Assembly (NCBI RefSeq): GCF_038025025.1
Contig: NW_027117340.1
Location: forward strand, 2,480,001-2,525,330
Origin: Phyllosticta citribraziliensis
Lineage: Eukaryota
Reading direction: 5' to 3'
Length of the DNA: 45,330 nucleotides
Part shown: positions 6,651-42,200 of the stretch, one piece after another
How positions within the stretch are numbered: position 1 is the first letter of the stretch
How the letters are laid out: each line of letters starts with the position of its first letter
The notes under the pieces: model-generated
Database searches by the model: none
What the model was told of the DNA's origin: nothing
What the model saw: the letters and a program-made list of their open reading frames with translations, nothing else
Program-made: the position numbers and the translations under genes

Positions 6651-6659
6651 TTAGTTTAC

Positions 6660-8873: not shown

Positions 8874-8878
8874 GATAT

Positions 8879-11070: not shown

Positions 11071-11077
11071 AAACTAA

Positions 11078-16678: not shown

Positions 16679-17146
16679 TATTATAACTTATAGATTTCTT
16701 ATTATATAGGTAAGGGCTAAAGGTAAACTACTAGAGAATATATATATATCTTAATTAAATCTAATAAGTTAAAAGAATAAAATATAAAAGATACTTACTA
16801 CCTATATATTTCCTAGTCCTTCCTTTATACTATTCTACCTCTTGTCCTTTATATAAGGGTCCTTAGTTATTATTAGGTAAGTTATAAAGGTGAGGTATTA
16901 ATGGGCTATTATATAGTATCTGCCTAGGGCTATAGTGGCTGGTGCCAGGCTATAGTGGCTAGTACTAGCCTATAGGTTTTAGCCTGAGCTATAGTAGGCT
17001 GCTACCTAAGGTGAGGCTTATACTTCCTATAACTGTGCGATGCTAGGTTTATCTATACTAGCCCTAGTACTTGCCTACTATATAATGCTAGGTTTGTCTG
17101 TACTGGCCCTGGTGCTTATATAGGCGCGTGTATGCCTATCGTGACA
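16679..17146 (-). repeat. A2 5' LTR (468 bp)
   Basis: Reverse complement of the A LTR plus a 45-bp tandem duplication (units in register at 17041 and 17086). Confidence 0.95.
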
Positions 17147-17571
17147 GTATAACTATTATTTTAACTAGAATCTCTCCTAATAACTGTTATATACTGTTAG
17201 GTATATAGGGGCTGGTCTAGGACCTATATCTAGCTAGTCTAGGGATTGGTTAGAAGCTACTAGATAATAGTATTAGCTATAGTTATAGACTAATATATTA
17301 GGAGGCTAGTTAGTAGATTCTATTTTCTCTTCTCCTATAGTTTTAGAGGTAGGGGAACCTAGCTCTTCTAGAGTAGATTTCTCCTTCTTACTAGACTCCT
17401 TTCTAGCTTCTTTACCTTATATAAGGTACTATCTATAGGTAGTTTATCTCTTACTAGTGCCCCTTATATTATTAGCCTTAGATAGTTATAACTAGGATCT
17501 TAAACCTAACTCTCTTTTTAATCCTACTCCTGTATTTGCTGGGGTGGGTAATATAAGTTATTTTAGGTAGG

Positions 17572-17740
17572 TATAATAATCTAACTAGATATTTATAGTA
17601 CTAATTTAGGTGTAAGAGTTGTCCTATTACTTAGGCTATCTATATAGCTAAAGTACCTATCCCCTATAACTACTAAGCTTACTAAGCTTACCCTTAGTAT
17701 CTAATAGCTATACTAGATCCCTATAGGATCTACTACTATA
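17572..17740 (-). repeat. Element B 3' LTR (169 bp)
   Basis: Matches 28428-28596 except for transitions. Confidence 0.93.
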
Positions 17741-17874
17741 GGTAGTAGCTAAAGTGGTTTATAGGTACCCTTACCTATATTTACTATCTAGTCCTAATCT
17801 ATACTCCTAAATCTATAGAACTAATCTATATAGTAATTATAACTATTACTAAAGGAAAAGAAAGGGAAAGCTTT

Positions 17875-20500
17875 ACTTATTATTATTATCTATTACTATC
17901 TACTCTAGAGTCTTAATCTATCTATCTCTAGTATCTAAGAGGTAGGAGCCTATAGCCTTAGTATTCTACTTTACCCTAACTATAGCTATTACCTTATTAT
18001 CCTAGGATTACTTACTACTTAAGTACTTAGATCCTAATTAGTTATTAATATTAATTACTCTATTACCCTTAGTTTATCTATATATCTTACGCGCTATATT
18101 ATAGATAGCCTTATATATAGTACTATCCTTTTTATAGGTAGTACTATTAGTATTAGACTTATCTTCTTTATTAAGTAGGTTAGTTAGGGCTAATATCTTA
18201 TCCTTAAGGTTAATAACCTCCTTATTATCTATTATACTAGGGTAATTAGTAATCCTATATTACTTAGGACTTAGCTTATTAGGGTCTAGCTTAGTCCTTA
18301 TAGTCTACTTCTTCTTAGGCTTAATTATAGTTATAGGGTTCTTAGGATCCTTATTCTTAGGACCCTTATTATTAATAGCTTTTAAGCTATACTAGGGTTT
18401 ACTATCTATACTAGATCTAGGTATACTAGTAAATATACCCTAGTATTATAGTATTAGTATTATAATACTAGATTTACTAGGTATTAGGGTAGATAGGGAG
18501 CTAGGATAAAAGTATAGATTAGGGTTAATAATCTTACTAGGATTAATTATATTAAAGATATTATTACTAGGGCTAGTAGTAGGATATAAGGGAGTATACT
18601 TCTATAATCTAAGTATAAGTAGAGTTCTATAGTACTAGTAGTCTAGCTAGTTCTATATCTCTACTATATAGTATTTCTTCTCTTATTCTATAGTATCCTT
18701 CCTTACCTACTCTTTAGCTAGACCTTCTTTAATCTAGGCCCTAAATAGGTTTACTAGGTAGTACTAGGGGCCTATAGGTATATAGTTATAGTTATAGAGT
18801 ATTAGATTATACTAGATATCTATAATATTCTACTTAATATAGAAATCCCTAGGTAGGGTAGTATATAATATAGACCTAGCCACCTTCTATAGTAATCTAA
18901 TCTTAGTTAATAACTAGGTAGTAAAACTATAATATAGGAGAGTATAGTTATTAAGTAGTACTAGGATTATATAAGATAGTAGGCCTAGTATCTAGTAAGT
19001 CTATAATTTAGTTAGGTTTAGTAGTAGGTTACCTATACTATCTAGAGTCTAGAAATACTTATTAAAGGGATAGGTATACTTTAGACCTATATACTAGAAT
19101 ACTATATAGACCTCTTCTATCTAGAGATAATTATAGGGCAGGATACTATAGTATATTATAGTATATAGTACTATTAGATCCTTAAATTAAAATAGGTCTT
19201 CCTTTATCTATCTATAGTATATACTACTAGCTATAATAATATTACTTCCTTTAAAGTATCCTTCTTATAGGGATTATCTATCTTCTACTCTAGATAATAG
19301 AGTAATAACTAGCTTAACCTTATTAATATAGCTAGTAGTAATAGGTAGTATCTTAGTAACTTCCTATTTATAACCCTTCTTAATAATAAAAGGTAGAGGT
19401 AGCCCTATAATATTATAGTTATAGGTAGCCTAGTATATAGCTTAGAAAGCCTTATTAGATATATTAGTCTAGAAATTAGTATTATTAAAGATATAGAAAC
19501 CCTAGAGGAGTATTATAATATTAGATTTATAGGGTTTAACTATATTATTATCCTTAACTTTATACTAGAGAATATAGATAGTATCCTAACTAGTCTTTAT
19601 AACCTAATAGCTATTATTAAAGGTGAGCAGGGCTATATACTAATATAGGATATTAAAATAGTACTAGTACTATAAGTAGGCGCATACTTTAAAGTAGAGG
19701 CCTAGGACCTAGACTAGCTTAATTAAGGTAAAGTACTCCTTATTAGGGGTAAGGTAGTCTAGAACCTTCTTATCCTAAGTAATAATAGGTACTACCCTAC
19801 TACTAGAAGATATATTCCTCTATTTATTAGCTTAGTAGCCCTAAGTATATTCCTTATTTAGATCCTTACTAGGATCCTTAGCTATAATAGTAGTATATAT
19901 CTTATCTCCTCCTAGCATCTTATACTTATAGATCCTAGTATAATAGAAGGCATTACTAATCTTCACCATAAAAGCTCTACTATAGAACCTATAGTAGGGA
20001 TTTAGTAAGCCCTCTATATAGGTATAAATATAGTACTTACTAATATTTATAAGCTAGAGGTTACTAGCTATTAATTATCCTACTAGTAAGTAGAGCTATC
20101 CTTCTATATATAATAATAAGTTATATCTATAGGGTAGAAGACTATAGGTATATATAACTATAGTCTAGATACTATTAAAGAGTACTATAGAATCTATAGT
20201 AGCTAGATTAGTAGTTCTTACTAGTTTACTATCCTCTCCTTTATTATAGGAGCTCTTTACTAGTAGATAGGTAAATATAGATATTAGAGCCTTATCCTTA
20301 GATAAGAAGGATATTATCTCTTTACCTAGAGGTATATTAGTATTAAGGTTAGGATCCTAGTTATATATATTAGTTACTAAATATTTACCTTTACTAGGTT
20401 TATATTTTATAATAGTAGTAATACTATAAGCCTTAGATTTATATTTTACTTAAGCTATAATCCTAGTAGACTACCTTAGTATAAGCTAGCCTAAGGGTAT
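17875..20500 (-). pseudogene. Element B extra ORF3 relic, same sense as pol, probably spliced; product unknown
   Basis: Long protein-like frames on the minus strand (C-terminal part de-RIPs to roughly KPKKKRTVRTKPDPDK...DEEVIDLEDE); candidate intron 19989-20040 GTAAGT..CTAA..TAG. Confidence 0.5.
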
Positions 20501-20879
20501 AATAGTTAGTAAGTATATTAAGCTAAGATATAATAGATATTAAAAGGGTGAGGGTATAGTGATAGATAATTATAGTTTAGACCTTAGGTACCTAGGTAAT
20601 ATAATTATACCTACTAGTATCCCTATATCCTAGCCTAAAAATAAAGGGAAAATAAATAAAGAAAGATAAAGAGAACTCTCTATAATATCCTAACTCTCTA
20701 TAATATCCTCTATATTATATCTTCTCCTTAATAAATAAAATACCTTAGTATAACCTCCTTATTATATTCTTATTACTATTACTAGAATCTATATCTTTAT
20801 CTACTATTACTAGCTCTAGGCTAGTATAAAGAAAATGTCCCTAGATATATATATAAGGAAAATAATATGGGATAATAAT

Positions 20880-23800
20880 AAAGGAAGAGCGCCTATTTAG
20901 GCGCAGTATAGGATTACTATATAAGGACTCCTAGTATAGTGGCCCCTGTGCTTATTATGCTAATAGGCTACTTTACCCTTATTAGTAATATTATTATAGG
21001 CTTGTAGGGGGTCCTTATTTACTATAGTTCCTATAGGTTCTTAGATACTAGTAGTCTCTTCTAATACTAGGATGCTAATAGTAGTGTTAGTAGGACCCTA
21101 AGGATACCTAGTAGGGGTGTATTACTTAGTTATATAGGTTTCTATATTAATCCTTATATTGTACTCCTTAACTAGGTCTTAGGTATTATAAAGGTTCTCT
21201 AGGTTTATCTACTAGTAGTATTTAGCTCCTTATCCTTACTAGTTAACTAAGTATTAGATCTTCTTTAAGTAGGGATTATGGTGCTGTAATAATAGTACTT
21301 AGATTTTATATTCTAGTACTATCTTACCCTTAGTTATAACCTCTAATAGTCCTAGAGGTAGAATATCCTGGCTATAAGGGTCTGCCCCTAGTATAGTATA
21401 AGGCTTAAGCTGTATAATGCTAATTACTAGATAGATTTTTATATTATTAGGGAGCTTAAGCTTATATACTAGCTTAGATCTAGTATAGGCCTTAATATAG
21501 AAAGGTCTAATAAACTAGTAGGTAAATTTCTTACTTATATTTCTATATATATAGTATTTATAGTATAGTTAAAGTCTTACCTAGGATCTAACTAGTAGGT
21601 GGATAAGCTTATACCTCTAGTTATATATATATTTATAGGAAGTATTTATAAAAGTAATACCTTTATAAGCTTAGTCCTAGAAATGAGCTCTTATAACCCC
21701 TAGTTTAGTATCTAGTAGCTCCTATTAGATTATTATTATTAGGTTAACTTATAGCTAGAATCTAAGGTATATCTTATCTGGAGTCTGGCCTGTTGCTATA
21801 TTAGGGGAAGAGTTTATTATAGCCTGAATTATAGGAAGGGTATTAGTCTACTATAGCTTAGTATTTACTATAATAAAGTAGTATAAGGTAATTTTAACTA
21901 TTTAATTTATCTACTTACTCTAGCTATCTATCTAGGGATGGTATACTATACTAGCTATAAAGTTAATCCTAAGATACTTAAAAATACTATTTATAAAGTT
22001 AGAGAGCTAATAGCTATCCCTATCTAAAATTATAACTGAAGGGAGTTCCTAGCTAAGTACTAGGATGGTTTTAATAAAAATACCTCCCTATTTACTAGCT
22101 ATTTAGGTCTCCTATCTAGGGACTAAGGCTATATACTTAATAAATTTATAGGTAACTATTAATAGTATATTAAATACCTCTATAGTAGGGGGTATCCTAG
22201 TAATGAAATCTACTATGATAGTATAGAAAGGTAATTTTAGGCTAATAATTAGGTATAGGGATCTATATAGCTTATACCTAGGAGTCCTATTCTATTTATA
22301 GTCTAGATAGTTATAGATATACTTAGATAATTATAAGTTTAAGTTATAGATAAAGTAAGCTAGATAGATATAGCTAAGTACCCTATTAATCCCCTAGTAG
22401 CTATACTTATTATAGGCTATTTTAAAGATATCCTTCTTATAACTTAGTAGGATATATAGGTACTCTTATCTATTAACCTAATCTTAAAAGTATACTAGGC
22501 TATTATAGATAAAGAACTATAGACTACTAGAAGGAGCCTCTACTAGGATATAGTTCTCTAGGGGTATATTATCCTAGTTAGCCTACTACTCCTATTTAAC
22601 TATTATAACTATCCTAGACTACTTTTAGTCTTTAGTATAGCTAGTATAGATCTTAGCCTTAAAGGTATTAGAAAGTTCTACTAAGGTAACTTAGAATATA
22701 AAGGTTTAATTATCTTTTAGAATTATATAGTTATTATTAGAGGATAGATATTCCTTAGTATCTAGGTAGCTAAGTATATCTAGAATAATATAGTTTTACC
22801 TAGCCCTATAGTATAGCTCTAAGTAGAACTAGCTTAGGAACTAGGATCCTTATATAAGCTTTATATTTAGGTATTCTATAGAATCTATACTTAGGAAGTA
22901 AGTCTAGGTAGTAATAGCTATAAGAGCTAAGTAGTCTATAAAAATAATTATATACTTTATAGATTCTATATAGAGATAAAGCTTATAAATAGCCTAGACT
23001 ACCCTAGCTATCTTAAGCTTAGTAGGCTAGTATCTAGATTCTATACCCTTTACTTATTTAGATAGGAAGATAATTAGCTATACTAATACCTTAGGAAAAT
23101 ATTTAGTATACTTAAGCTATTTAACTAATAGATCCTAGACTAATCCTAGTCCTACCTAGATACTATCTAGTTACTTAATAGCCTAAGTATATAGGGCTTA
23201 TCTATCCTATACTACTAGTACCTAAGGCTCTATTTTAGGCTTAGGATCCCTAATAATATGGTAGGCTATTACTCCTATACTATATTCCTTACTTATATTA
23301 ATATTAATATATAAAGGCCTCTCTAGATTATAATATACTAACTAGTCTATATTATATAAGGTTTCCTTAATTACTTTAAATATATCTAGCTAGTCTAGGT
23401 TAGGGTTATTCTACTTCTTAGCTACTACTTAATAGTATGTACTCTTAGTCTTAGGGATCCCTTTAAGTACCTTAGCTAGTAGTACCATTTTAGTTACTTC
23501 TAGTAGCTCTACTAGGTAGGTATAATATAGTATATACTACTATAACTATCTAGTAAGCCCTAAGAAAGTTTTAAGCTTTTAGAGGGTATTTAGGAAAGTA
23601 AGGTCCTTAATAGTATAGATCTTATCTTTATAGGTAATTACTCTATAGCTATAGATATACTAACCTAAGTATAAAACTAATAGGTATCTAAGTAGTATCT
23701 TCTTAGGTAATAAGGAGATCTATCTATTATCTAGTACCTTTAGTATAGAGTCTAGGTATATAAGGTATTTATTAAAAGTTTTAAAGTATATTAGTATATT

Positions 23801-26800
23801 ATTAATATATATAAAAGTAAAATCCTAGCAGCCTATATAGTATAGGATATTATTAAATTAGTACTAGATATATAGTATACTATTATAGAATCCTATAAGA
23901 GCTACTACTAGGGTTTCCTAGCTATAGTAACTCTAGATTATTATATAGTACTAGTAGGCTTACTTAACTAATTATTAATAGAAGAAAGATTACCTATTAA
24001 TAAATAAGGCATATAGATATCCTTATAGATAACTTACTAAGTCCTAGATAGTTTTTAAGGCATACTTATTATAGCACATTAGGGTATTTAAACCCTAGAT
24101 ATCTATAACTCTATAACCCTTATACTTATACTAGACCTATAGGGGCCTATCTCCTAGTTAGAGAAGCTAGTAATACTTATCTTTCTAGATAATAAAGGCT
24201 AGCTAAGCAAATTCTATTAGCTTATCTATCTATAATATTTTAGGCGTTCCATCTACAGCAATCTAATTATATAGGTCTTTAAAGGTCTTATTCAGCACCT
24301 ACTTACCCTTATAGGATATACTATATACCTAAGTTAGTAGGAGGTATCCTAGCTTATCTTACTAGTTATCTACTAGGTTAATAGGTATCTAGTCTTCTTT
24401 AGGTATATTAACTATAGTATATTAGTCTATAAATAGTAGTAGATACTTCTTTAGGATCTTCTAAAAGGTATTAATATAATCTAGTAGGCTATAGATATAA
24501 ATACTATTATTAAGAGTAGTTTCTAATTCTAGTAGGATCCTATTATAGAATATACCTGCTATAGAGTAGTTAGATACCTAGTAGTAGCTATTAATTTCTA
24601 TAGCTACTAAGTATCTAAGCCTTACTTATTATAGGATTATGAGTAGCTTATCTATATTATTATAAGTAAAAAGCTAACTAAAATCTAAATTATATACTAT
24701 ATAATATAGGATACTGCCTTAAACCAGGAATAGAATCTAGCTAGTTTACTAATTAGGTTAAAATTTATATAGCTAGTTAGGGAGATCCTTACCTACTATT
24801 ATACTAATTAGCACTAATAAATATAGCTTAATAATTACCTGCTATATAGCCTTAATAACCCTGTATACTAGTATGGTATACTTCTATAGGACTACCTTAG
24901 TCTATAGGTTATAATAGAAAGGCTATATTACTATACTTTAGCTATTAATGAGGACCCCTTAAGGTTAGATAATATTTATACTAATAAGTAGTAGGATTAG
25001 TATATTATTAATTACCCTTATATAGTATTATACTATCCCTATAGCTTATGACCTATTAGGCAGCACCCCTAGTAAGTAGAGTGGTAAAAGGATATACTTG
25101 TTAGATACTATAGGCTTACCTACTACTCTATAGATAGTACCTACTATTAGTAAGGTCTAGATCTTAATATTAGGTAGTTTATTATATAGGAAGCTTCTTA
25201 TTACTAAGGATAAGGATACTCCTATATTTAAGTAAGCTATATTAAGGAATCCCTTAGGTATGAGCTAGAAACTTATTTCTATAGATTGGTATATAGGGAA
25301 ATAGGGAGGTGCCTAGATATCTACTATATTTACTAAAGAACTAATTATCTATAGATCCTATATACTTATAGTAAAGATGGTATTAAGTACTTATAGTATC
25401 TTATTAAGCTAATAATTATACTCCTTAGTTTTATTACCCTTAGACCTATTCTATACCCTAGTAGGATGGTCCTTTAAATGCGCGAATAGCTTATTATGTA
25501 ATATAAAATATATTAGATAGAACTGGTATCTGTATAGTAAGATTAGTTAAGTATTATCTAGGGTCTTATTACTGGTACTAGCTAATAGGCCTAATAGGGT
25601 AAGGTTAATAAAAAGTATAAAATCCTTATAATAGTAATAAGCTGTATCTTCCTCTATAGTATCCTTATCTACTAATGCCTTATTACCTTTATCTAGGCTG
25701 CTATCTAATATATCTCCTTTATCTTCTTTACTATTACTACTATCTAGGCTGCTAGTATAGTAATTAGGCTATACCTTAGCTAGGCCCTTACCCTTCTAGT
25801 TCTAGTATTAGGATTTTGAATTAGTAGTATTTCTAGTATACTAAGGTAGAGTAGGTAGGGCCTTTTTCTTAGGATATATAATCTACTTCTTAGCTATAGT
25901 ATTACTTATATAACCCTAGCCCCCTTAATAGGAGTTATTAGTATTATAGTAGGGATTTTATAAGAATCCTTACTAATTAGTATTATATATAAAAGGTTAC
26001 TTACTTACTTATAGATATACCTTATTATATAGCTCATACTATATATACTAGTATAACTTAATATCCTAGATAAATTCTTCTATAGTAGTATCTACTTATA
26101 GGTATAGGATAAGTATATAGTATTATACCTCTATCTTATTCTAAGCCTATATTAATTAGCTGCGCACCCTAGTAAGGCTAGATACCTTACTATACTAGAC
26201 ATAATCTAATATAAAATCTGCTATTAGAATATTATTATATATACTATATTTATTAAACTTTATTTTATCTAGCCACTTTATAGCTTTATAGACTAGTAGT
26301 CCCTACTATTCCTATAGCACTTATACCTAATTATTAATACTATCACCATCTAGGAGAGCATCCTAATAGGCCTTTATTAACTACTAGATATACTATTTAG
26401 TAGCTTATCCTTTAAGGCATCTTCCTAGGTTTTTATATATAACTTATACTAGAATATATTATAAGGATATATCTGTAGCTTTAATAAATTACTTAATATC
26501 CTAGTAGTAGGTCTAGGTTCCTTTAATTATAATATTACTAGGCTTAAATTTAGCTTCTAGGAGGTATAGGTTAAAGAATCTAACCTCCTTAGGGCTAAAC
26601 TTTAGTACTAGTAACTACTAATAAGAAGGAAACTACTAATCTAGATCTAGGGTAGTCTATAGACTAGTATTATATAGGTATTCTATAGCCTTCCTTTTAT
26701 AATCTATATACTAGATTATAGCTCTCAGGCTATCCTAATTAGCTTAGGCTTTATAGGTAGTATTATATTAGGTTTACTAGTAACTCTCTAGGGATTTAAA

Positions 26801-27056
26801 TAATTTACCTAATTATATATTAATTTTACTTATACTAGTATTAATTATAGTAAGCCTTATTCCCTACTAACCTAGTAGCTTAGATTAGTTACCTAACTAT
26901 ATATTAAGGTCAGTAATAGCTACATCCTAAGCACTAAGATTAGTTTTAAGGTACTAGGCTTAGGCCCCTATAAAAGATAGTAGGTCCTCTATATTACCTT
27001 ATCTACTACCTCTAGATCCTAATCCTTTACTAGATCTACTAGCCCCAGATATCATA
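20880..27056 (-). pseudogene. pol: Element B gag-pol relic
   Basis: De-RIP: CLDTG ~25220-25236; FVYIDD ~23799-23816; LYIDIDASKE ~23287-23316; YWPTELE ~23012-23033; TVDFITGIP ~22194-22220; ISDRD ~22017-22031; AYHPQTDGQSER ~21911-21946; VGPF ~21502; chromodomain EYEI..YSVDW.G ~21150-21320. Ends approximate. Confidence 0.88.
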
Positions 27057-28427
27057 ACTCTCTAGTAGTATTAAGAACCTATACTTAATTAGCTTATAGG
27101 ATAGTATTTAGGTACTCTAGGGGGTAGGAGTATAGGAAGTAGCTTATATTAGTTATATTATAGTAACTAGGAAGGTTTTAGTAAGGGGAATTAAGTATCT
27201 AGGCAGTTAGTATCATACCAGATAATTATATTAAGGGATCTACTATATAAATCTAAAGAGAGGTTATTACTACTTATATTATAATAGTTAGGGAAATAAA
27301 AGGCTCCATAGTAACTAGGCTAGTAAAGGTTTAGATCTATAGAGTAGGATTTATAGCTTAACACATAAGAATAGTAGAAAAGATTAGAAGGTATATATAG
27401 AGAGGATAAAAGTCTATAGGATATATTAAGGGAGGATATATTAAATAGTCATTATTAGGCACAGCTAGGTATTAAAGGACTAGCTAATTCCTAGGCAGGT
27501 AATAGCAGGTATATTACACCTATATTAGGACCTAGGATCTAGTATAGTAACTACCATTATAGTTACTTAGTTACTATAGTACCTAGTTATTATATACTAT
27601 CTTCATAACTAGCAGATCTGTGCAGACTAAACCTATAGAGGGTAATTATACTATATTCCTTAATTATACTCTAGGAAGACCATTATACTAAAGGGGCTTA
27701 TAGTATTAAAGGGTAGATTAGAGTTAATATATATAGTATTATAATATATTAAGGAGTAGTAGGGGTTAAAGATATAGGTACTAGTATAGGTAGTACACTT
27801 ATAATACCAGCTATAAAATATATAGTATCCATAGATTAGCTTATTAGTACTAGTATCTAGCCTATAATCATCTAGGATTAGCTAGAAGAACTAAGTAGTA
27901 AGCCTATAATAATAGGTAGTAGGGTAGAGCCTTATAACTAAATCTTATAGGCTAGTATACTAATCCTAGCAACCTAAGTAGCATACTCATTAATAAACTC
28001 CTATATAGTATATAAGAGAGTCTATTAGCCTTTAATAGTAGAACTCTAAGTAATAGGGTATCTAGGAAGAGCCCTACTAGCCAGATTCCTTATACTAGCC
28101 TAGATCTTAGGAGGATTAAACTATTATATAAAGATAAAGATTAACTAATAGGTCAGGGCAAGGAGTAGATCCTAGAGGGACTATAGGCCAGTATCTAAGA
28201 GGTTCTATAATTACTAAGTAAGTAGTTAAAGTTTTATAGGTAGTTCTTATTACTCTATAGTTATTAAGGTAGACCAGGTTAGATTCTAGGTATAGGAGGA
28301 TCTTAATACACTATTAATATAGTAGAAGATATATTATATATTTAGATCTAAGTAGCTAGTATAGCAGTAGTAGAAGCAGTATAAAAAGGGGTTTTAACTT
28401 ATAGAATAACCCTTTTTAGCTACTATA

Positions 28428-28596
28428 TATAATAATCTAACCAGATATTTATAGTACTAATTTAGGTATAAGAGTTATCCCATTACTTAGGCTATCTATA
28501 TGGCTAAAGTACCTATCCCCTATAACTACTAAGCTTGCTAAGCTTACCCTTAGCATCTAATAGCCACACCAGATCCCTACAGGATCCACTGCTATA
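28428..28596 (-). repeat. Element B 5' LTR (169 bp)
   Basis: Direct repeat of 17572-17740, upstream of gag on the minus strand. Confidence 0.93.
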
Positions 28597-28601
28597 GTAG
28601 G

Positions 28602-30375
28602 TAACCTGCTTATTATTACTTAGTCCCTTAGTACTTATATTATACTAAGGGGCTGTATATCCTCTATTAGTCCTTTTATAGTTTACCTAGCTATAGGGGT
28701 AACTTTAGTTAGTTATCTATCCCTAGCCTTACTAGGGGAAGGTTCCCTTACCTACTTTATAGTGTTATACTAGGTACTCCTAAGTTTAGTAATAGCTCTT
28801 AATTATTTTAATAAAGGACTATATAGTTATTTAGGGTATAGGCTCCTCTAGCTACTACTAGTAGAAAGGATCTATTTTAGTAAAGGTATTAGTAAGCTAA
28901 TTATAGATAGTCTAGAAGCTAGCTATATATCCTAAATAGATATAAGTAATTATAAAGTCCCTAGTACCCTTATTATATACCTCCTTAAGACTAAAACTAA
29001 TAGTATTTAAAGTATTAATTACTTTATACTAGGTTATACTAAAATCCTCCTAAAGTAAGGTAGCCTAGTATTTAATACTAGCCCTAGTATATATATAGGC
29101 ACAGTCCTCCTCTATAATTTATAAAGTAAACTATATATTAGTAGTTCCTTTAAGATACTTCTATAGATTAAGTTATACTATCCTAGTACTAAATATTATA
29201 TAAGCTATCTAAGTACTATTAATAAATTATTCTATAGTATAGTAAACTACCTTCCTATATTTTATAGTACTACTACCCTAGCTAACCTTATCTTTACCTA
29301 GATTAGGGTTAAAGTAGCTAATATTATTAGGGTAGAAGTATAGGAAAGTATAAGAGTAGTTATAGTTATTATCTATATACTAAATAATTTATTAGTCTAC
29401 TACTAGTAGTAGAGACTACTTATATATTATACTATTAGGGAAATAGAACTAGAAGTATAATAGTAGTTATAGTTATATAAGGTTTAATAGTCCTCTATAA
29501 TTATAGGTTTTAAGAAAAGGAAAACTAGACTAGGCATAGTATTCCTAGTAGTACTATACCTTTATATCTAGGTAAAAGTAACCTATATTATCTTAGAGGT
29601 AGTAGGTATTATTTATAGTATTACTAGTAGATTTAAGACTAGCTAGGCACTTACTTAGTAAGCTATAGAGGGTATTAATACTATTATTTATACTCTTAAA
29701 GCTTTCTATTTATACCTATTACTAGTTAAGGATAAGCCCCTAGAGTCTAGTAATCTAGCTTATTAAAGTAGTATACTCTACTAGGCCTTATAGGATCTCC
29801 TCTATCTTATCTATAGTATTATAGTACTATCTTTCCTTACCCTAAGTATCTATTCTTTAGCTAGTAGGGCCTAGCCTAGCTATAAACCTCTAAATACTAG
29901 GGCTACTAATATTAAAGCCTATAGTAGGTATACCTTATATTAGTATAGGTAGTATAAAGGTTCCTATAATCTAAGCTAGTAGAGGTAGGAAGATTCCTAC
30001 TATAGAGACTATTAGTATAGTAGCCCTAGTAGAAAAGGGGGCCTATACCTACTCTATACTAGTACTATAGGTATTAAAAGTATAGGTATATAATTTTAGT
30101 AGAGGTACTATTATTCTAGATCTCTAGATACCTAAGAGATCTAAATAGTCCCCTTACTAGGTCTTATCACCTTTATCCCCTTAATAATTATTAAGACTAT
30201 TATTATAAGGGTTATTATACTACTTAGTATTATAATTAATATATAGGTTCTCCCTACTATAGGGTAATATCTCCTCTATATCCTTACTACTACTATACTA
30301 GGGGTTTAGTTTAACTATCTCTATTAAGGAGGTATAATATCCTTTACCTTTATTAATAGGGACCTATAAAGCTAT
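28602..30375 (-). pseudogene. Uncharacterised low-complexity ORF relic (continues at 17566 down to ~17310), putative extra ORF of element C
   Basis: Minus-strand frame from ata-gct-tta-tag-gtc (probable ATG) with an acidic N-terminus; the frame reads through the element B TSD; at least one frame change/intron near 29150. Confidence 0.4.
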
Positions 30376-30983
30376 AATTAAACTAGTATATAAATATATA
30401 CTCTCCTATCTATAAGTACTAACTAAGGTTTAGCTAACTTAACTTAAGGGCTAGGCTCTTAATTAAAAGTATAGGAGTAGTTTTATAAAACTAGGGGAAC
30501 TATAACTATATCCTTATAGTATTTAGGGTAGAGTAGTCTTAGTTAAATTATTAGGTTAAGCTAGAATATTAAGTTATAAGGTATACTCTATATAAGGTTT
30601 ATAGGTAGGAGAGTTAAATATAAGAGTTAAGGGGTATCCTTAAAGAGTAGTAATAGGAGTATAGGCTAATAAGGATAATAGGTTAGCTAAGTATATAGTT
30701 AGAGTAGCTTAACTAATTAGGTAGGTACTACCTAAGGGATAATTATCTAATTATCCTAATATCTAGCCTAAGGTTACTAGGTTAGTTATTAAAGGTCTTA
30801 TAGGTAGTAACCTTTAAGATATTACTAGGGTACTTCCCCTTCCTACTTTAGAGATACCTACCATTCCTAGGGCCTCATTTATTTATTATAGGCCTAAGCC
30901 AGGGGTTATTAGGTAGTCTAGGAGTATTTATATAAAGGAACTAAAGCTTCTAGGTTCTAGTATAGTAGTACTTACTAGGTTAT

Positions 30984-31406
30984 TATTACGACTCGCAGAT
31001 TTCTCGTTATGTAGGTAAGGGCTAAAGGTAAACTACTAGAGAATATATATATATCTTAATTAAATCTAATAAGTTAAAAGAATAAAATATAAAAGATACT
31101 TACTACCTATATATTTCCTAGTCCTTCCTTTATACTATTCTACCTCTTATCCTTTATATAAGGGTCCTTAGTTATTATTAGGTGAGTTATAAAGGTAAGG
31201 TATTAATAGGCTATTATGTGGTATCTACCTAGGGCCGTAGTAGCTAGTACCAGGCTGTAGTAGCTAGTGCCAGCCTGCAGGTTTTAGCCTAAGCTGCGGC
31301 AGGCTGCTACCTAAGGTGAGGCTTATACTTCTTATAACTACGTAATACTAGGTTTATCTATACTAGCCCTGGTACTTATATAGGTATATATACGCCTATT
31401 ATAACA
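30984..31406 (-). repeat. A3 3' LTR (423 bp)
   Basis: Reverse complement of the A1 LTR; single copy of the 45-bp unit. Confidence 0.95.
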
Positions 31407-31959
31407 TGCCCCCCCTAAAGAGAAGCTAAAATTGTAGGAATTAGCAGCTATAGGTGCTTATATAGGTACAGACTTATAATATATAATAGTGGTGATTTGG
31501 TGATTTAAGCGTTCTATATAGTTATAAAGTATAATTATTAGTCTAGGTCCCTACTATACTATCTCTTTCTATTACTATCTCTTTTGCCGCGCGACCTATA
31601 GAAGGTTACTATCTTACTTAGCTATATCTAAAGCTCCCTATTAAAGTATATTATTACCCTAGTCTAATTTAGCCATAATCTAGTAAACTAACTATCGCGC
31701 GTAAAGGTTCTAATAATTTAAATAATTTATACCCTACTAATAGTAAAGCAGATATTCCTAGCTGCTATGTACTTAATACGTCCGCTACTTATTATAGTCT
31801 AGTCTATTAGGACTTATTACTATTATATAAGAGTTATAGTATTAAGTTATTATTATATAGTATTATTTACAATCTATTACAGTCACTGCTTACTTAGAGA
31901 GCTATTTTAGCTAGCAGTATCTATAAGGACCATTATATAGAGTTCTAAGATAAGTAAAC

Positions 31960-33200
31960 TTTAATTCTATCTCTTTAGACCATTACTAATTATTATCTAG
32001 GCTATTAAGTAGTATTATATATCTAGGTTTTACTACTTCATCATCCCGTCTTACTAACCGATATAATTATAGAGGAGGATACTTATATAAAGACTCAGTT
32101 AGGCTAGGCTTTACTTATTTAGCTAGGAATAGCTACAGGCTTATTACTTTACCTATAGTATACTATAGCGTCAGGTTCTACTTAATTAGCATTATTAGTT
32201 ATCGCATGAGGTTCATCATCTACAGCTATACAGCCTGCTACTAACCAGCCTATTATGCTATATTACTGCCAGTTTACTGTCGCGCAGCCTATTTTAGAGG
32301 AAGAAGGTAAAGAGCCTACTTATATATACTATTATTATAATCCTACAGCTCATCAGGTTCTAGCAGCTAAGTACTTACTACCTACTACTTTATATAATAG
32401 CAGTAATAGTAAGATTCGCATTATAGCATTACCAGTTAGCTCTAATAAGGCGCCTATTAAGTAGGACTTTAAGTTAACACTTTATATCCCTTATAAGAAT
32501 ATAGAGAGTATCGTATAAGTAAGTTTATCTTACTAATATAAGGGATTCTTATCTAACTAACTATATAGGTGCGCCTTAGTAGTTCTAAAGTATAAGAGCG
32601 CGCTAAGCGCATCTTAGCCTTAGGTAATAGCATACCTTACTTATATATTATAGTTTCCACTTAGCAATTTAACTACTTATTAGTTAAAACTTAAGCCAGC
32701 TTGCGCAATACTTTTCTTATCTAGTACACTAGAATTAATAACCCTATTAGCTGCACTAAGTATTATAACAATACTAACACTTATATATTTATTAGTTATT
32801 ACTACCTGCCTGGTTTCTTATAGGGCCGCTGCGCCAACTACCTTTAGGGTATAGGCAACCTTAACTATACTATAAGTAACTTAAAGGGTGCCAAGCCGCC
32901 TGCTTATTATAAGAGGTATAAAGATGAAATTTACATAGAGGAGTTCTAGAACTTATACTACCAAGCCAGGTTAGAGGATTAAACTAATCAGGCTTTAGCT
33001 AAGTAGGACATCCTGCCTAATAAGCTAGAGGATCTAGAGGAGATGGTCTTATATAATAACTATTATAATAAGAAGAAGGGAAAAGGAAAGAAGTAAAGGG
33101 TAGAAATTAAAGAAGAGGATAGTAGGGAATAAGTAGTAAAAAGGAGAGACTAGAGAGTAGAAGTTAAGATTAATAGTATTTATATAAGGGTAAATAGTAA
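31960..33200 (+). pseudogene. A3 antisense accessory ORF relic with six-Cys cluster (DUF3716-like)
   Basis: 32686-32870 includes ctg cct ggt ttc tta tag ggc cgc tgc gcc aac (LPGF.WGRCAN); track ORF 32255-32464 probably belongs to an upstream exon in another frame; limits uncertain. Confidence 0.6.
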
Positions 33201-33205
33201 ACTAA

Positions 33206-36200
33206 TTAGTCTACTTTCTATATCTTTATAATATTTACTATAGGCCTAAGTAACTTATTTTATTATTACTTTCTCTTTCAATCTAGGGTTCTTCTTAAAG
33301 GAAGGCAGTTTTCTATTTTTCTAGATTTTTTAGTAGTCCTACTATAGTAGGGTATAATAAATAGAATTCTTTAATTTTCTATAGTGTGCTACTAAAAGAA
33401 CTTATATTATACTACTAGTTATCTTAGTTATATCTAGTCTATTTAACTTGGTATTAAAGCTTCCTATATAAGACTTAACTAGCTTAAATATAGTCTACTT
33501 CCCACTTAGGCTCGTCTTAAATAATCTTAGGTTTAGGTTTAGTATATTCCTAACTAGGAAGCTGTTCTATTTTAGCCTTATATAGCCTATTAGTATAGAA
33601 AAGGTTAACCATCTTTATATATAAGGAAAGATTAAGGATGTAGGAGGGTCCTTCTATTCCTATAATCTTAAAAGGTCTAGTATTAGGAAAGTCTAATTTA
33701 AGGTTTAGCTAATTAGTAGACCATCCTATTTTCTTAATATAGATATAATCTCTAACTATAAAGTCTAGCGCGCGACGGTATTTATTAGCTTGTTAGTATA
33801 TATACTCTTAGGATTTAAGAATAAGATTCTTTATAAATTTAAAAGCTTCTTATCTTCTCTTTTATAGCATTTATACTACTATGTGAGCTATTTTCTCTAG
33901 TTACTAGGGGGTTTTAGTTCTTTATTACTAGTTATAGTATAATTAAGGGGAATATCCTAACTCAATCTTAAAAGGTAAAAGTCTAGTAGCTTTATAGGGA
34001 AGTGTTACTTGTATAAGGTCTATTAATAGTAGAAGATCAGACTAATCATTCTAAAAGTAATTAATAAAAGGTCTTAATCTTTATATAAGATGCTAATTAA
34101 CAATCTCTATAATACTATTAGTCTAAGAGTAGTAGGATAAGTTAAAATACTACTCTATACTAGTCAGCTTATATAGTTTATTTATAAATACTAAGATGAA
34201 CTAAGGGCCTTAGTTAGATAGGATAGACTTAGGGTTTCTATAAATATAGTAGATATATTTATAAAAGAGTCTAGAGACTCCTTTAGTATTAATCTTCTTT
34301 ATATAAGGCAAGCTGAAGGTTCTTTAACTTAACTAGTCTATAATAACTAGGATTGCATTATAGCCTTTTTAGTCTTTAGGCATCTCTTTAAAATCTATAG
34401 CTAAGTGTTACTAGGGTTAAGTAGGAATCTCTAGGGGTTATAGAAGGCCTAGGTCTTTATTATAAAACTCTTTTATTTAGTAGTAAATATGGCATCCTTG
34501 CCTGTAAATATTAATCATATAATTTATAGCTAGCTAGTAGTAATATTACTTAAGGAGTTTTTACATCTTTATAATACTAGGATAGGTAGTTATATAGGTA
34601 GTATATAAAGTATTAAGCATTCTCGCGCGGAGGTTATTATAATCTAGTATAAAGAGTATACTATATTATAGTAAAAGACTATCCTTTAGTTCCTAACTAT
34701 TTCTTTATTTAAGGTCCTTTAAGAGGGCTTTCTATTTCTAGAGTTCTAATTTAGAATCTTCCTAGTTTACATAGAGGAGTTTATCTAAAAATAACACTAG
34801 AGGAGGAAGTTCTTATTCTAAAATAGAAAGAGGGATAATAGTCTCTAGTAGGATAAGATATATCTCTTATATAGCTTTTACTTTTTCTTTCTAAGTCTTT
34901 AGGTCTTCTTATTTTTAAGTAAGGTAATTAGCAATGATATTTTCCTTTCCTAGCTAATAGGAGAATCATATATAGAACTCTATAAAAAACTTAGACTATC
35001 TAGCTTATTATTAATTAAGTTGTCATTTAGTAGAGTAGTACTCTAATACCTAATAGTCTATTATTACAAGAAAAGGTTTTTTAAGGCTAATAAGCATTAG
35101 TCTCTATTCTTCTAGTCTATTCTTAATAGCTAGCAGTTCTTTATTAGATATTCTATAATGAAGTTCTATATCTACTATTACCTTAGAGTAGAAGGCTACT
35201 AGTTTCTAATTATATAAAGGTTATTAGAGCTGCATTAAAACGCCTATAGTAACTCTATTACTTATATCAGTCTCTATATAAGTATTAAGAGTAGGGTTAT
35301 AGTTAGCTAGAAGTGTATTACTATATATTAGCTTCTTAAGTTATTAAATTGCCTCCTCTTCTAGGGGTCCTAGTAGTCGCCATTTTGCCTTAGAGTATAG
35401 TTTCTCTAATAGCTAGCTAATTTATCTATAGTTAGGGAGAAATTGTTAGTAGAAATTATAGAAACCTAGGAAGGATTAAAGAGCTTTAAGGGTTTTTAGT
35501 ATTAGCTAGTTTTATATAGGTTCTACTTTATCTAGGTCTATCTAAATGCCTTCTATAGAAATGATATATCTAAGGAACTTTATATAAGTAACTAAAAACT
35601 TACTCTTCTTTAAATCTACCTATAGTCCTGCTTTTTATAGTCTTACTAGTACTTTTTTTACTTATTCCTCGTGCTCCGTAGGGTCTTTAGAGATAATAAG
35701 CATGTTATCTATAAAAGCCACAATAAAATCGTCTAAATACTTAAAGAGAACCTAGTTGATAAAATATTAAAAGGCTGTAGGTCTATTACTTAATCTAAAT
35801 AGTAAGACATAGTATTTAAATAAGCTGTATCTTATATAGAAGGTAGTCTTGTCTTTAGAATCCTTAGTAAGATAAATGTAGTAGAAAGCTTGTTAAATAT
35901 TAAGCTTAGTATAAATTTTGCCCTTTCTAATATACTAAAGCAACTCTATAATAAGAGGAAGGGGGTGCGAATCCTTAGCAGTTTATTTATTAAGCTATTA
36001 GTAGTCTATATAAAATCTCCATCCCCTACTAGGCTTTTTTACTACTAGAATAGGAGAAGTGTAGGCAGTAAAGCTTTTAGTAATAAAGCCTTTCTAAATA
36101 TTCTTAATGATATACTCTTTTGCAGCCTTAAGCTATTCTAGAGATATTCTATAGAGAGGGCTAGGTAGAAGCTCTAGTAGACTATTATATATAAGAGATA

Positions 36201-38572
36201 TTTTATAATTAACTCCCGCGCGATATAGTAGTAGCTTGTTAGACTCTATTTTAGAAAATACATCTCAAAATTCCTTATAAGTAGCTAGTAGCTTAGAAGC
36301 TAATAATTCCTCGGTTTCTTTATCTTTAAGAGCTGCTTAAACTTGTACGAGGTTAATAGTATAGATCTCTATTAGCACAACTTATATTTTATAGATAGAA
36401 AGCTTAAAAGCATCTTAAGTTTAAAATTTAATTCCCTTAATAACCTGTACTAAGGGAAGAAGGCGTTTATTAAAGTTTTTATCTCTATAGTCTATATCTA
36501 CTTAATATTCTTTCTGCGGTTCGTTACTTTATACAGAGACTTTTAGTAGGTATAAAAGATACTAAAAGGATTAGTTAACTAGTAGCTGTCTCTAGACTAA
36601 TTTATATCGTTTATAGTCTAGAAGAACATTGTGCTAGTTAAAAAACTATCACCTAAGAATCATGTCATTATAGCTAATATTATAAATAAAAGTATAAGTA
36701 GAAACTATTTAATCCTAGAAGTAGAGTTAAAGATAAAAGTAAAAATTAACTTTCTTATTTATATATTAGTTAAACCTAGTAATATTAAGCCCTTTACCTA
36801 TTATTCTCTTTTTTATAGTACCTATAGACTAGAGAGTTAGTAGTAGCTTAGGGTAAATAAAACTTATACTACTAGTACTAGTATTAGCTAGGGCATAAAT
36901 TTCTAAGGCGCGGCTATTAGATATAATTAAGGTTTATATAGTAAAGGGTATACCTCTAATAAAGTAACTAAGATTTATATAAGAACCCTTAATATGTATT
37001 ACTCTAAGTTTAGACCTATAGCTAGAGACTTTACCTAGGTCTTATTATTTTCTAATAAAGACTAATCTCCTTTATTTATATAGATATCTTTAGTACTTTC
37101 TTCTTTAACTAACTCTATTACCTTTATCTCTAGTTGTAGGTATTATCTCTATAAATAGCTAAACTAGCTATAGTAATTATATAGTCTAATCTCTATATAG
37201 ACTTCTACTTTACCTTTATAGGTTATATTATATAAGGGAGCCCTAGATATAGATCTATGCCTAGTATAACTAGAAGATAAAGTACTTATACTACCTAAGG
37301 TAGTTATCTTTACTCTTTCTTATTATCTCTTCTTTACTTATTCCTTACGCGACGTGAGTATTAGTTTTCTATAGTTAGAATAGTAGTTACTAAGACTTTA
37401 AGTAATAGGGTAGGCTTATTAGAGGTACTTATAAAAGTTAATATCCTTATCTTACTCTATAGTAACTATATAGGTTTAAAGGAGAGGATCTATTATATTA
37501 TAAAAGTCCTCTTTCTACTATTCCTAGGGAAGATCTACATCTAAGGCTAATTATATAAAGTTTAATTAAAACTTCTAAAGGTCTATAGGAATATAGTATA
37601 TAAGAGAGCATAACTACTTCTTTATATCCTTATATTTATATAGACTCTAGAGGAGGTTATCTAGGAATTTAAAGATATCCTTATCTAGAGTAACTTTATT
37701 AGCCTTTATATAAGAAGTAAGGAAAGGAGTTAGGTAATATAAGACTTCTCTACTAATATAGGAAATAATATAACCTATAATATTCTATTTAGTCTCCTCT
37801 ACTATATCTTTAGTAAAGTAATTATAGTTTTATTTAATTTTATTTTATATAAGGAGGGTCTAGTATTTATATAAGGGGTCTTCTCTATTAGTAAGAAGAG
37901 GAGGATTAGGAACCTTACTACTTTAGTATTTCTTACTACTTAAAGATAAAGTAGAGGTTTTAGTAGTAGTTTCCCTTATATAGGTTAGAGGAGGTCTAAG
38001 AGTCCTTATTACTCTACTAGTAGAAGGATCTTAAGAGAGGGTAATAGGTCTTAGGTACTAAGCTAATAGAGAGGGCCTAATATATCCTTCCCTTAAGACT
38101 TCCCTAAGTCTATTAGCATAGTTTAAGAATGTTTACTTAAGAGCCCAGTTCTACCTTTGAGTATAGTTTAGTTACTGCTATACTTAAGACTTATTTAAGG
38201 ATGTAATCTTAGATTTAAATTAATTAATATCTAAGTGTAGTACCTTTATAAACGCCTCTATAACTAGAGCTTAAACTATATAAGTTGACCCTAGGTCTTA
38301 GGTATATTCTTTTACCTCTACTACTAGGACTAAGTAGAAATTATATAGGAGAATAGGGGTAGGTCCTCTCTTATTATTATTTAATAAGTATCTAGTATTA
38401 TATAAATCTTTAGTTCCTTTATGCGAATCTTATTAAGTTAATTAACTAGTACTAATACCTTTAGTAGTACTAGATATATTAGCTTTATTCTTAGCTATAC
38501 TATCTTTATAGTCTTCTACTTAGAATGTCCCTTAAGTAGGTTATAGATAGGATACCTCCTAGATATTTATAT
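33206..38572 (-). pseudogene. pol: A3 gag-pol relic
   Basis: Colinear reverse complement of A1 gag-pol with the same motifs. Confidence 0.9.
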
Positions 38573-38806
38573 ACTACCCTATAGCCTTAACTAAAGACTT
38601 CTATAGTTAATATATGCTTAATACTCCTTAGTCCTTAGATAATACTAATGCGCCTAATAAAGATAACTTAGGTTTACTAGGGAAAAGTAATAAGTAGTCT
38701 TATATAAGACTATAGCTGTATATAATATTACTTAGGTTGAATATTATAATACCTTTATAGGTAAAGAAGTAGGATAGAGCTAAAACTTAGAATAATCTTT
38801 TATATC

Positions 38807-39229
38807 TATTATAACTTGTAGATTTCTTATTATATAGGTAAGGGCTAAAGGTAAACTACTAGAGAATATATATATATCTTAATTAAATCTAATAAGTTAA
38901 AAGAATAAAATATAAAAGATACTTACTACCTATATATTTCCTAGTCCTTCCTTTATACCATTCTACCTCTTATCCTTTATATAAGGGTCCTTGGTTATTA
39001 TTAGGTAAGTTATAAAGGTAAGGTGTTAATAGGCTATTATATAGTATCTACCTAGGGCTATAGTAGCTAGTACTAGGCTATAGTAGCTAGTACTAGCCTA
39101 TAGGTTTTAGCCTAAGCTGTAGTAGGCTGCTGCCTAAGGTAAGGCTTGTACTTCTTATAACTATATAATGCTAGGTTTGTCTATACTAGCCCTAGTACTT
39201 ATATAGGCGCGTGTACGCCTATCGTGATA
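38807..39229 (-). repeat. A3 5' LTR (423 bp)
   Basis: Direct repeat of 30984-31406; ends CCTATCGTGATA. Confidence 0.95.
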
Positions 39230-39234
39230 ATTAC

Positions 39235-42200
39235 TAGGGTATAGTTAGTTTTTAAACTAGCTTAAGGAGCCTATATAGCTAGTACTACTATAATTTATTT
39301 TACTAGTAGGTATTATAGTCTCCTATATATATAGTAATATTAGCTAATAGTATTAGCTACTAGTATTTATAGCTAATAACTTTAATAGTATATTTAATAC
39401 TAAAGTACCTACTAACTAGGTTATTATAGTTCTATAGAAAGATCTTACTATATAATAGGGTACTATTAGGTACCTATACCTTACTATCTTAGTAGATAAG
39501 ACCCTAGGGGTCTATAGAGTACCCCTCTCTAGTACTATCTACCCCTATTATACTATCTATATAGACCTTATTATATAGAGGGTCTACTCTCTAGCTATCT
39601 AGAAGTAGCTAGAGGAGAGACTTAGAGGGGTTAATATAGGCTATTTTACTAGTAGTAGCTACTACTACCTCCTAGTAAGATATTAAGCTTAGTACTAAGC
39701 TAATACTAATAATTAGGGCTACTATAAGGGGGTTCCTATTATAGGAAAGGACTTAGATTAAAGGTAGTATTACTAAGTCCTTAGCTCTAAATAGGTACTA
39801 TAATATATCTATCTAGCTAGTATATAGAGGGCTAGTAGTACCTAGGAACTCCTTAAGATTCTTTACTTAGAGCTTCTACTATAGTATAGGTAGTAGAATA
39901 TCTAATACTAGCTATTTATCTATCTCTTTAAAGCCCCTAGTATAGTTAGGGTAATAGGATAGGCTATTAGTAGGATTAGTTAAGCTAGATTTATAGCTAA
40001 TCTTAAAATTAAACTCTATAAGTAACTCTATATACCTAGCCTACTAAGTAGTTAGGTACTTAGTTTCTATAAAGTAGTAGAGGTTATTATAATCTATAAG
40101 GACTTATATAGTAGTAGGTATATATACTAGGTAGTACTACTATATTTTAAAGTATTCTATAATAGTATATAACTCTTTATTATAGGTATTATACTATACT
40201 TTAGTAGTAATAAACTTATATAAGTAGTAGGTAATTAGGTACTAGTATATAGCCCTATTACTCCTAACTATAGGCTATAGGAGAATTCCTATATATATAT
40301 AATTAGAGGTATCTATAATTAGGGTTAATAGATACTATAGATTATAGTACTATAATAGAGGGCCTTTAAGAAAGGCTCCTTATAGCTACTAGAATATTAT
40401 CTAGATAGGTTCTAGCTAGTACTAGAATTAGTACTATTATATAGGCCCTTTCTTAGTCTTTTTCTTCTTTACCTCTATAGCCCTAGGTTTACTACCTATT
40501 AGGGGCTAACTAGCCTCCCTTAGGAGCTTATATAAGGGCTAAGTAAGTATAGAGTAGTTCTAAATAAACTAATAATAGAAGTTAGTAAAGCCTAGGAATA
40601 CTTAGATATCCTAGTAGCTTTAGGGTTCTAGCTATTCTTTAATAATCTAGACCTATTTAGTATCTATTTAGATACTATTAAGGGTAATTATAAACCCTAA
40701 GAATTTAATATACTTTATATAGAATATATACTTTAAACTCTTTATATATAGTTTCTATTCCTATAACTATTCTAAGATTAATTTAATATAGTAGATATAG
40801 TCTATCTTATCCTTAAAGTAGATAAGGATATTATCTAGATAGATAATATAGATAGAGTCTAGGTATCTAACTAAGGTATAGTAGATATATACCTAAAAGA
40901 ATACTAGAGTATTAGCTAGCCTAAAGGGTATTATTATATACTTATAATAGCTATAGTATATCTTAAAAGCTATTTTCTATTTATCCCCTACTTTAATATA
41001 GAGCTAATAGTAGGTATTATAGAGATCTAGCTTTATATAGATAGTAGCCCCTAAGATATAGTCTATTAGCTCCTTAATTAGTAGTAAAGGGTACTAATTC
41101 TTAATAGTAGCCTTATTAAGCCCCTAGTAGTCTATATAAAAGTATAGGGTCCTATTAGCCTTTAGAATAAAGAGGATTAGGGCCTTATTAGATAACTTAT
41201 TAGATCTAATCTATCTAAGGTATAGTATCTTCTCTAGGTACTCCTTAAGGATATTTAGTTCTCTCTTAGATAGGTTATAGATTAGTAACTATAGTAGTAT
41301 TTTATTATCCTCTAGATTAATTATATAGTTATACTCTATATTCTAGGCTAAGATACTAGTAAGTTTATTATTAAAGATATTATTAAACTCTATATACTAC
41401 TTTAAAAGGGCCCTAAAGGGCTCTCTACTAGTACCTATATAGGCTACTAGGTCCTAGGGATAGCTACTATTAGATATACTAATAGTAGCTATAAGTAATT
41501 ATATATTCTATAGGGTTCCTATAGGACCTAAGTAGCTAACCTATTAGGGTTACTATACTATAGTACCTATAGTCTAGGTATAGTAGATATATTCTTTAGG
41601 GCTAACCTTATCCTCTAGCTTATCTAATAAGATATACTTAATTACTAGCTTATAACTTAGGTTAGCCTAGGAGAATAATATTCTATACTTTTAGAAGTAC
41701 TTAAAGTAGTACTTAGCCTTACCTATCTACTCTAGGCTAAGGATAAGATTAAATACTACCTCTTAACTTTTCTAGAATAGCTAGGGGCCTATAGTCCTAC
41801 TATAACTATAGTTATCCTAGATTATAGTTAAGAACTTATAGGTTAAGCCTAGGGTAAGAGGAGACTTATCTACTAGAATAGTAGTTAGATAGTAACTAGG
41901 TAGTACTTAAATAGAGACTAATCTCTTATCTAATACTATAGACCTCTAGATTATATTTAGGGTTATATTATTATTAATAAGGGCTATTAAAGAGTAGGTC
42001 CTAGTAGCTATATTATATATAACTTATACTACTAGTAAATTATCTATTACTTAATAGCTTCTTTATTAGTTCTCTTACCCTAATTACTAAGAAGCTCTTA
42101 GATATATAACTAGAGTATACCTTTTTCTAACTTCTTATTAGCTAGTAGTTAGTCTCTCTTTAACTAGGGGGTACTATCTAAATAGCTTTAGTTACTATTC

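Follow-up and report, generated by a model that had tools for sequence, protein, structure and literature searches.

Does the DNA between pol and the 3′ LTR of this dead retrotransposon hold a gene of its own, and if so, what might its protein have done for the element? The window (the whole 45,330-nt stretch that was analysed) is fungal repeat DNA mutated by RIP, with a GC content of ~29% and a TpA/ApT ratio of ~1.8. It contains three copies (C1, C2 and C3) of one element, family A, each ~8.25 kb long with LTRs of ~420 bp, and 93% alike. The LTRs, the polypurine tract (PPT) and the pol order RT-RNase H-integrase identify family A as a Ty3/Gypsy LTR retrotransposon. The parts of the element needed here are:

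625–8879, plus strand: copy C1, an LTR element copy with a DUF3716 relic at 7158–7015 on the minus strand
8871–17072, minus strand: copy C2, with a Cys cluster at ~10558–10743 that is too mutated for an HMM match
30984–39231, minus strand: copy C3, with an LTR pair, 93% identity to the other two copies, RT and RNase H, and a TpA/ApT ratio of ~1.8
30984–31406, minus strand: 3′ LTR of C3, defined by self-BLAST to 38807–39222 and by the PPT junction, with one CGCGCG site (31339)
31409–31416, minus strand: PPT, which 21 of 22 copies show as seven consecutive G on the sense strand of the element, separated from the LTR by 2 nt
33235–36400, minus strand: pol of C3, with RT, RNase H, integrase, an SH3-like part and a chromodomain-like end; the 3′ end is accurate to ~30 nt and the 5′ bound is approximate

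Pfam detected RVT_1 and RNase H in pol of all three window copies and rve in one (C2, in the order RVT_1, RT_RNaseH, rve). The C-terminal end of the integrase gave a weak SH3_Tf2-1 match; it looks chromodomain-like by eye, and Pfam matched no chromodomain there in any of the three copies. In the genome (31.4 Mb) at least 40 matches to the 3′ region of the element were found, and the antisense gene described below is common to all copies. Transitions outnumber transversions by ~19:1 among 22 full-length copies, and every copy examined is riddled with stop codons, dead by RIP. The locus itself is a dead relic of known layout.

C1 and C2 adjoin LTR to LTR in opposite orientation (window 8455–9270 and 16673–17139). 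The far LTR of C2 is shortened by ~60 bp, and one C2 LTR contains a 45-nt duplication; LTR insertions of 30–45 nt occur at five genome loci, C2 among them.

The gap between the end of pol (~33235) and the PPT (31409–31416) measures ~1.8 kb, as the earlier note had claimed for the three copies. The Cys-rich frame noticed there is on the plus strand while pol of C3 is on the minus strand; the frame is therefore antisense and converges on pol, also as described. Its start had been placed near 32221. We find instead that coding extends upstream across introns that had been missed, and the gene model (~31624–33096) comprises 436 codons in four exons:

31420–31623, plus strand: conserved spacer, candidate promoter or 5′ UTR of the antisense gene, with one CGCGCG at 31588
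31624–31645, plus strand: probable exon 1 with the start codon (one of 30 copies reads ATG, the other 29 ATA), its frame joining the downstream exons; the least certain part of the model
31646–31706, plus strand: probable intron 1, with GTAYRT donor variants, an ACTRAC branch site in 29 of 30 copies and an AAG acceptor
31707–31949, plus strand: exon 2, fast-evolving; 6 of 7 indel events keep the frame, and transversion sites by position are 19/31/21, the third position being highest
31950–32000, plus strand: intron 2, with GTRAGT in 23 of 30 copies, a branch site and YAG in 30 of 30; it collects frame-breaking indels
32001–32518, plus strand: exon 3; each of the 10 indel events has a length divisible by 3, and third positions hold 17 of 35 transversions in the 5′ half and 15 of 22 in the 3′ half
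32519–32568, plus strand: intron 3 (phase 0), with GTAAGT in 30 of 30 copies, a CTRAC branch site and YAG in 30 of 30; retained in 7 of 8 diverged copies
32569–33096, plus strand: exon 4, with the DUF3716 domain, an acidic segment, a terminal Lys-rich run and the stop at 33094–33096
32692–32868, plus strand: DUF3716 six-Cys domain, C-x2-C-x11-C-x10-C-x2-C-x8-C
33097–33234, plus strand: purine-rich 3′ untranslated gap with frame-breaking indels, separating the two converging genes

Two of the introns are well supported and the third is probable; the 1- and 11-nt indels of diverged copies fall within intron 1. The uncertain parts of the model are exon 1 and the frame of 32001–32245: in the 5′ half of exon 3 another plus-strand frame has fewer stop columns, which makes the frame there less certain. 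A further intron at 32206–32272 was considered and rejected, as its donor and acceptor columns misfit and the indels there all keep the frame. The spacer upstream of exon 1 is conserved, with 0.044 transversion sites per base vs 0.11–0.28 in the exons and 0.065 in pol.

The 3′ end also had to be corrected. The note had described a Lys/Arg/Glu-rich tail resembling a nuclear localization signal, and part of it stands: the terminal Lys-rich run is coding. Each of the 8 aligned copies extending to the gene end has its stop, at 33094–33096, directly after this run. Behind that stop lies the Arg/Glu-rich stretch, from which 4 of 30 copies have lost 14 nt and in which diverged copies have −1 and +5 indels. 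Given the common stop and the frame shifts behind it, the Glu-rich "tail" is untranslated, and we rejected it as coding sequence on account of these frame-breaking indels.

Because RIP makes transitions only, we assessed coding constraint from transversions and indels. When the genome was searched at the protein level, 59 rows were returned, diverged subfamilies among them; 53 are full-length exon-4 matches, in keeping with the aORF-3R class of antisense genes, and an internal TGA occurs in none of the 59. Of these loci 11 were fetched, and 8 were aligned with C3, at 70–86% DNA identity. In this alignment 95 of the 188 transversion sites in the three large exons fall at third positions, with a p of 8.5e-7 that is optimistic, since the frames were partly chosen using the same data. 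In a count by exon, exon 4 has 37 of 68 transversions at third positions; it has no TGA column among 173 codons. Indel events keep the frame in 17 of 19 cases within modelled exons vs 2 of 20 outside; the tally was made by hand and excludes gaps at alignment ends, one pol event seen in a single copy and a few events that were split or compensating. Stop columns discriminate less: the modelled chain has 35 and the other two offsets 41 and 74, so that it is barely separated from one of them. The stop-column load of the gene resembles that of pol (104 of 987). The codon-level conservation that the note had asked about is present, as third-position bias and frame-keeping indels. We conclude that the element family carried a spliced antisense gene of ~436 codons that was under protein-level constraint while the family diversified.

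The spacing of the six Cys codons reported in the note (x2, x11, x10, x2, x8) holds across 30 genome copies. Cys is encoded in 7 of these 30 at 32752, 9 at 32761, 7 at 32797, 20 at 32830, 20 at 32839 and 4 at 32866; the remaining codons in the six columns are all TAY (Tyr), as was also seen in a set of 22 full-length and 8 diverged copies. Within the window, five of the six codons survive in at least one copy, again as stated, the exception being 32761. A seventh Cys proposed ahead of the cluster, at 32725, was rejected, as this codon is TAY in 30 of 30 copies.

The domain has the pattern of DUF3716 (PF12511), i.e., six Cys spaced x2, x9–25, x10, x2, x8 with a PG..G.CANC core. DUF3716 was the top Pfam family, yet only 2 of 30 natural copies, all RIP-damaged, matched it, at 15.1 and 15.4 bits vs a gathering threshold of 22; the three window copies, read with X, gave no Pfam match. 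A further profile was built from 15 intact domains (13 from metagenomes and two from host genes). Aligned to this by hhalign, the profile of family copies matched with 94% probability (E 1.2e-7). The resemblance to DUF3716 that the note had proposed is supported, although single copies stay below the Pfam cut-off. In six frames of the window the HMM of the 15 domains matched in the antisense gene of C1 and C3 only (the C1 relic scoring 18.3 bits, i-E 5.6e-7), and it matched 15 of 20 full-length loci at i-E <1 and 0 of 22 control loci. With a larger family HMM, to which 98 more domains were added, 8 of 30 natural copies exceeded 22 bits, the best reaching 33.4. Taken together, the gene call and the domain call are very probably both correct.

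Among intact DUF3716 members the spacing 2,11,10,2,8 occurs in 4, the commonest being 2,9,10,2,8 (54 members). A word-based protein search for an intact close relative, using one natural copy, scored 0 of 37 candidates, and the profile of 30 copies searched against 1.8 billion representatives gave two matches, both repeat proteins that we judged spurious. The first half of a Gal4-type Zn2Cys6 cluster is spaced C-x2-C-x6-C. With 11 residues between Cys 2 and 3 this class was rejected, and Zn_clus matches 0 of 30 copies. The note's alternative wording, an "expanded Zn2Cys6 cluster", likewise did not survive: the spacing is DUF3716's own. The predicted structure of an intact family member (69 residues, pLDDT 82.9) gave no PDB fold match by Foldseek or VIA, searches in which 69 residues may score too low. 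A PDB sequence search returned weak matches only, the best being a HiPIP at E 0.029.

To place the domain we turned to its intact relatives. A motif scan of metagenomes yielded 67 loci, of which 14 encode DUF3716 above the cut-off, two of them with identical domains; the sample is biased because the motif pattern selects one DUF3716 subtype. In the 14 loci 37 of 60 long ORFs were scanned. Nine loci are at least 2.9 kb long, and a transposon enzyme was found in six of these and none in the scanned ORFs of the other three:

L054: Copia RT, with DUF3716 converging behind pol as in family A
L092: Helitron Rep/helicase
L105: PIF1 helicase
L047: hAT
L060: NDC10_II (Crypton-like) and Tc1
L065: Plavaka, with the DUF3716 gene divergent from the Plavaka transposase (7959–12492)

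Using the RIP-damaged pol as query, tblastn detected no Gypsy pol in the 67 loci, so that no intact Gypsy element with the gene was seen among them. Several of the loci contain palindrome arrays. CGTACG is found 57 times vs 9.9 expected in L054, 17 vs 1.1 in L047 and 25 vs 3.3 in L060, with median gaps of 106–162 bp. In L056 (92–4245) TGTACA occurs 24 times vs 3.1 expected, at a median gap of 154 bp; this may be an unclassified element, as no Pfam transposase was detected in its scanned ORFs. The enriched words of L092, L105 and L065 are non-palindromic. L065 is enriched in CAACTTGA (9 vs 0.46). In L062, L052 and the two host DUF3716 genes no enriched word beyond simple repeats was seen. These two host genes, L031 (G000:C11:1304896) and L032 (G000:C12:1431642), are intact, lie outside RIP DNA in the same genome as family A and have no palindrome array nearby. 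Further Phyllosticta proteins match the DUF3716 profile.

Family A has a palindrome of its own:

31339–38427, no strand: dispersed CGCGCG, mostly YCGCGCGR, each site being intact in one or more of 22 natural copies, at 31339, 31588, 31696, 31854, 32203, 32512, 32702, 32782, 33769, 34624, 36217, 37346, 38158 and 38420

Compared with a background of 160 kb of gene-rich host DNA, CGCGCG occurs 14 times vs 3.8 expected and YCGCGCGR 11 times vs 0.78 expected per 7.8 kb (one LTR counted), counts to be read with the caveat that RIP spared RCGY contexts better than YCGR. GCGCGC is unenriched (6 vs 4.6 expected), and the other palindromes of three C and three G occur 0–1 times. A pyrimidine 5′ and a purine 3′ of CGCGCG are found in 25 of 28 flanking positions (p 1.4e-5), a test that RIP cannot bias; the word itself was picked post hoc, after inspection of the element. 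A second repeat family was tried as a control for the motif, and with 43 CpG sites in 9 loci it was too mutated to serve. CGTACG was rejected as the family A motif, having one site only. The sites are unevenly spread, 8 of 14 lying in the 1.45 kb between the LTR and the domain, and they are sparser and less regular than the CGTACG arrays. As to CpG survival in general, the 22 full-length copies retain TCGA and CCGG at no more than 4 sites, GCGC at 55 and ACGT at 28, a pattern suggesting that in this fungus RIP or methylation favours YCGR.

An antisense DUF3716 gene and a CG-rich palindrome within the same element suggest that the element might once have been a target of its own protein. The proposal in the note, a nuclear transactivator or anti-silencing protein, gains indirect support from the palindrome sites and from the presence of intact relatives in several classes of transposon. 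The gene would have had a promoter of its own, located either in the conserved spacer or in the LTR; the ~200 bp between PPT and start could serve as well as the LTR as a promoter candidate. The protein would then enter the nucleus, bind metal via its six Cys and bind the YCGCGCGR palindromes of the element. Such binding may have maintained transcription of the element or protected the element from heterochromatin, much as VANC acts on its transposons; this is the least certain step. We give this whole reading, an element-encoded nuclear DNA-binding factor for the element's own motif, a probability of roughly 55%.

Precedents exist for parts of this reading. NCU05718 of Neurospora is reported to bind double-stranded TTAGGG directly, through a domain that was not mapped (PMC4650311), and is called an orthologue of a DUF3716 protein (PMC10776026). 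The likeness of family A to NCU05718 and to PSC58 of Fusarium (PMC4650311, PMC10776026) is the DUF3716 family link, NCU05718 binding DNA repeats; unlike the family A gene, both are described as host genes. VANC is reported to relieve silencing of its own transposons sequence-specifically (PMC5735166). As described for the Arabidopsis VANDAL elements in the same source, an element-encoded protein is combined with short motifs within the element that vary between families, and family A likewise has a short motif enriched within the element; this is a likeness of working model, with no homology shown or expected. VANC targets are described there as often being tandem repeats in non-coding regions, whereas the family A palindromes are dispersed and lie mostly inside coding sequence.

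The layout of the gene also has counterparts. In Boty-like Ty3/Gypsy elements of Botrytis cinerea and Sclerotinia, brtn is an antisense extra gene (Zhao et al., 2011, Virology 417:248, as cited in PMC7264820, PMC8365987 and PMC4227169). Both are extra antisense genes between pol and the 3′ LTR of a fungal Gypsy element, a likeness of position and orientation; in contrast to brtn, family A is dead in every copy examined, and the citing passages mention no motif array for brtn. The domain content of brtn may already be in print. Plant aORF-3R genes (Grande gene23, RIRE2, Retand and PvRetro13) share position and orientation with the family A gene, and for them an own promoter and a nuclear protein proposed as a regulator are described; they belong to other protein families, and no Cys6 domain is named in that account (PMC7264820). 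DUF3716 itself is reported in REP9-1 and REP9-2 of the Zymoseptoria REP9/Styx IS3EU-like DNA transposon (PMC8232023), although a later paper gives the Styx ORFs other domains, namely GATA, CCHC and DUF3577 (PMC10853768). These too are transposon-borne DUF3716 genes; unlike family A, REP9/Styx is a class II element, active and expressed.

The antisense-gene layout (brtn) and DUF3716 in a transposon (REP9) are already known from the literature. New here are a gene model with four exons, a correction of its 3′ end and a different palindrome. A search of openly available articles found no paper placing DUF3716 in a retrotransposon or tying it to palindrome arrays, and among the papers listed for CGTACG palindromes in fungal transposons no title concerned transposon arrays. 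The TCGTACGA palindrome of the transposon arrays is described as the core of the Pfcyp51 promoter repeats of Pseudocercospora fijiensis (PMC8252799), where a tie to DUF3716 is only a lead.

The protein could instead have been a functional accessory factor at another step, such as nuclear import, RNA handling or integration targeting, or the gene could have acted via its antisense transcript, the palindromes being host-bound or unrelated. We consider this unlikely. Both roles have been proposed for antisense extra ORFs (PMC7264820), and the orientation fits an RNA-only role; that role leaves the frame-keeping indels and the third-position bias unexplained. Because the genome has DUF3716 host genes in non-RIP DNA without arrays, a host protein could be the palindrome binder. 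In the host promoter of Pseudocercospora, multiplication of TCGTACGA is reported to correlate with higher expression (PMC8252799), a hint that palindromes of this kind can be read by host factors. A role in reverse transcription would not explain why the same gene is found beside hAT, Helitron, Crypton-like and Plavaka enzymes.

That a host DUF3716 gene was captured on a single occasion and then persisted as a near-neutral passenger, or because of what it did to the host, appears improbable. The same genome does have the two intact DUF3716 genes in non-RIP DNA, one of which is the best non-family match of a natural copy (26%, E 0.003), and REP9-1 is reported to affect pycnidia formation (PMC8232023). 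The likeness to the host genes is limited to the domain, however, and no better than that to distant fungal members, the constraint lasted across subfamilies 70–86% alike, and the association with transposons recurs across classes. Finally, a chance pattern in AT-rich RIP debris, which could appeal to the stops that fill all copies (12 of the 436 modelled columns are stops in 22 of 22), is refuted by the coding constraint, the hhalign match and the specificity of the HMM for the antisense-gene spot, the known pol being equally loaded with fixed stops (45 of 987).

Returning to the element-encoded DNA-binding factor, its extension beyond family A can be offered only tentatively and at somewhat less than even odds. 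Fungal transposons of unrelated classes (Gypsy, Copia, hAT, Helitron, Crypton-like, Plavaka and IS3EU) might have adopted DUF3716 as a module that binds specific DNA sequences and lets each of them recognise itself. Every lineage would then combine its variant of the domain with a palindrome of its own (CGTACG, TGTACA or, in family A, YCGCGCGR), placed even inside coding sequence, and fungi would have an equivalent of VANC anti-silencing that spans transposon classes; family A would be a case of protein and motif changing together. No function has so far been known for DUF3716 or for the antisense extra genes of LTR retrotransposons, and a defined domain with a candidate binding word makes both questions testable. 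Should the motif differ with the protein, this would point to a counter-defence of fungal transposons and to a new family of DNA-binding domains.

The rest of the window consists of other repeats. The region 17140–30983 is more heavily affected by RIP, with 10 CpG in 13.8 kb, and gave no match to the DUF3716 HMM; it includes a 170-bp direct repeat (17572–17741 and 28428–28597). The segment 20000–24000 is matched at full length 7 times in the genome, and by eye its minus strand shows Gypsy-like RT stretches. At 40491–41279, also on the minus strand, another, distant Gypsy family is represented by its RT region, 36% identical to the pol of family A, and in the DNA around it CpA, TpG and CpG are almost gone.
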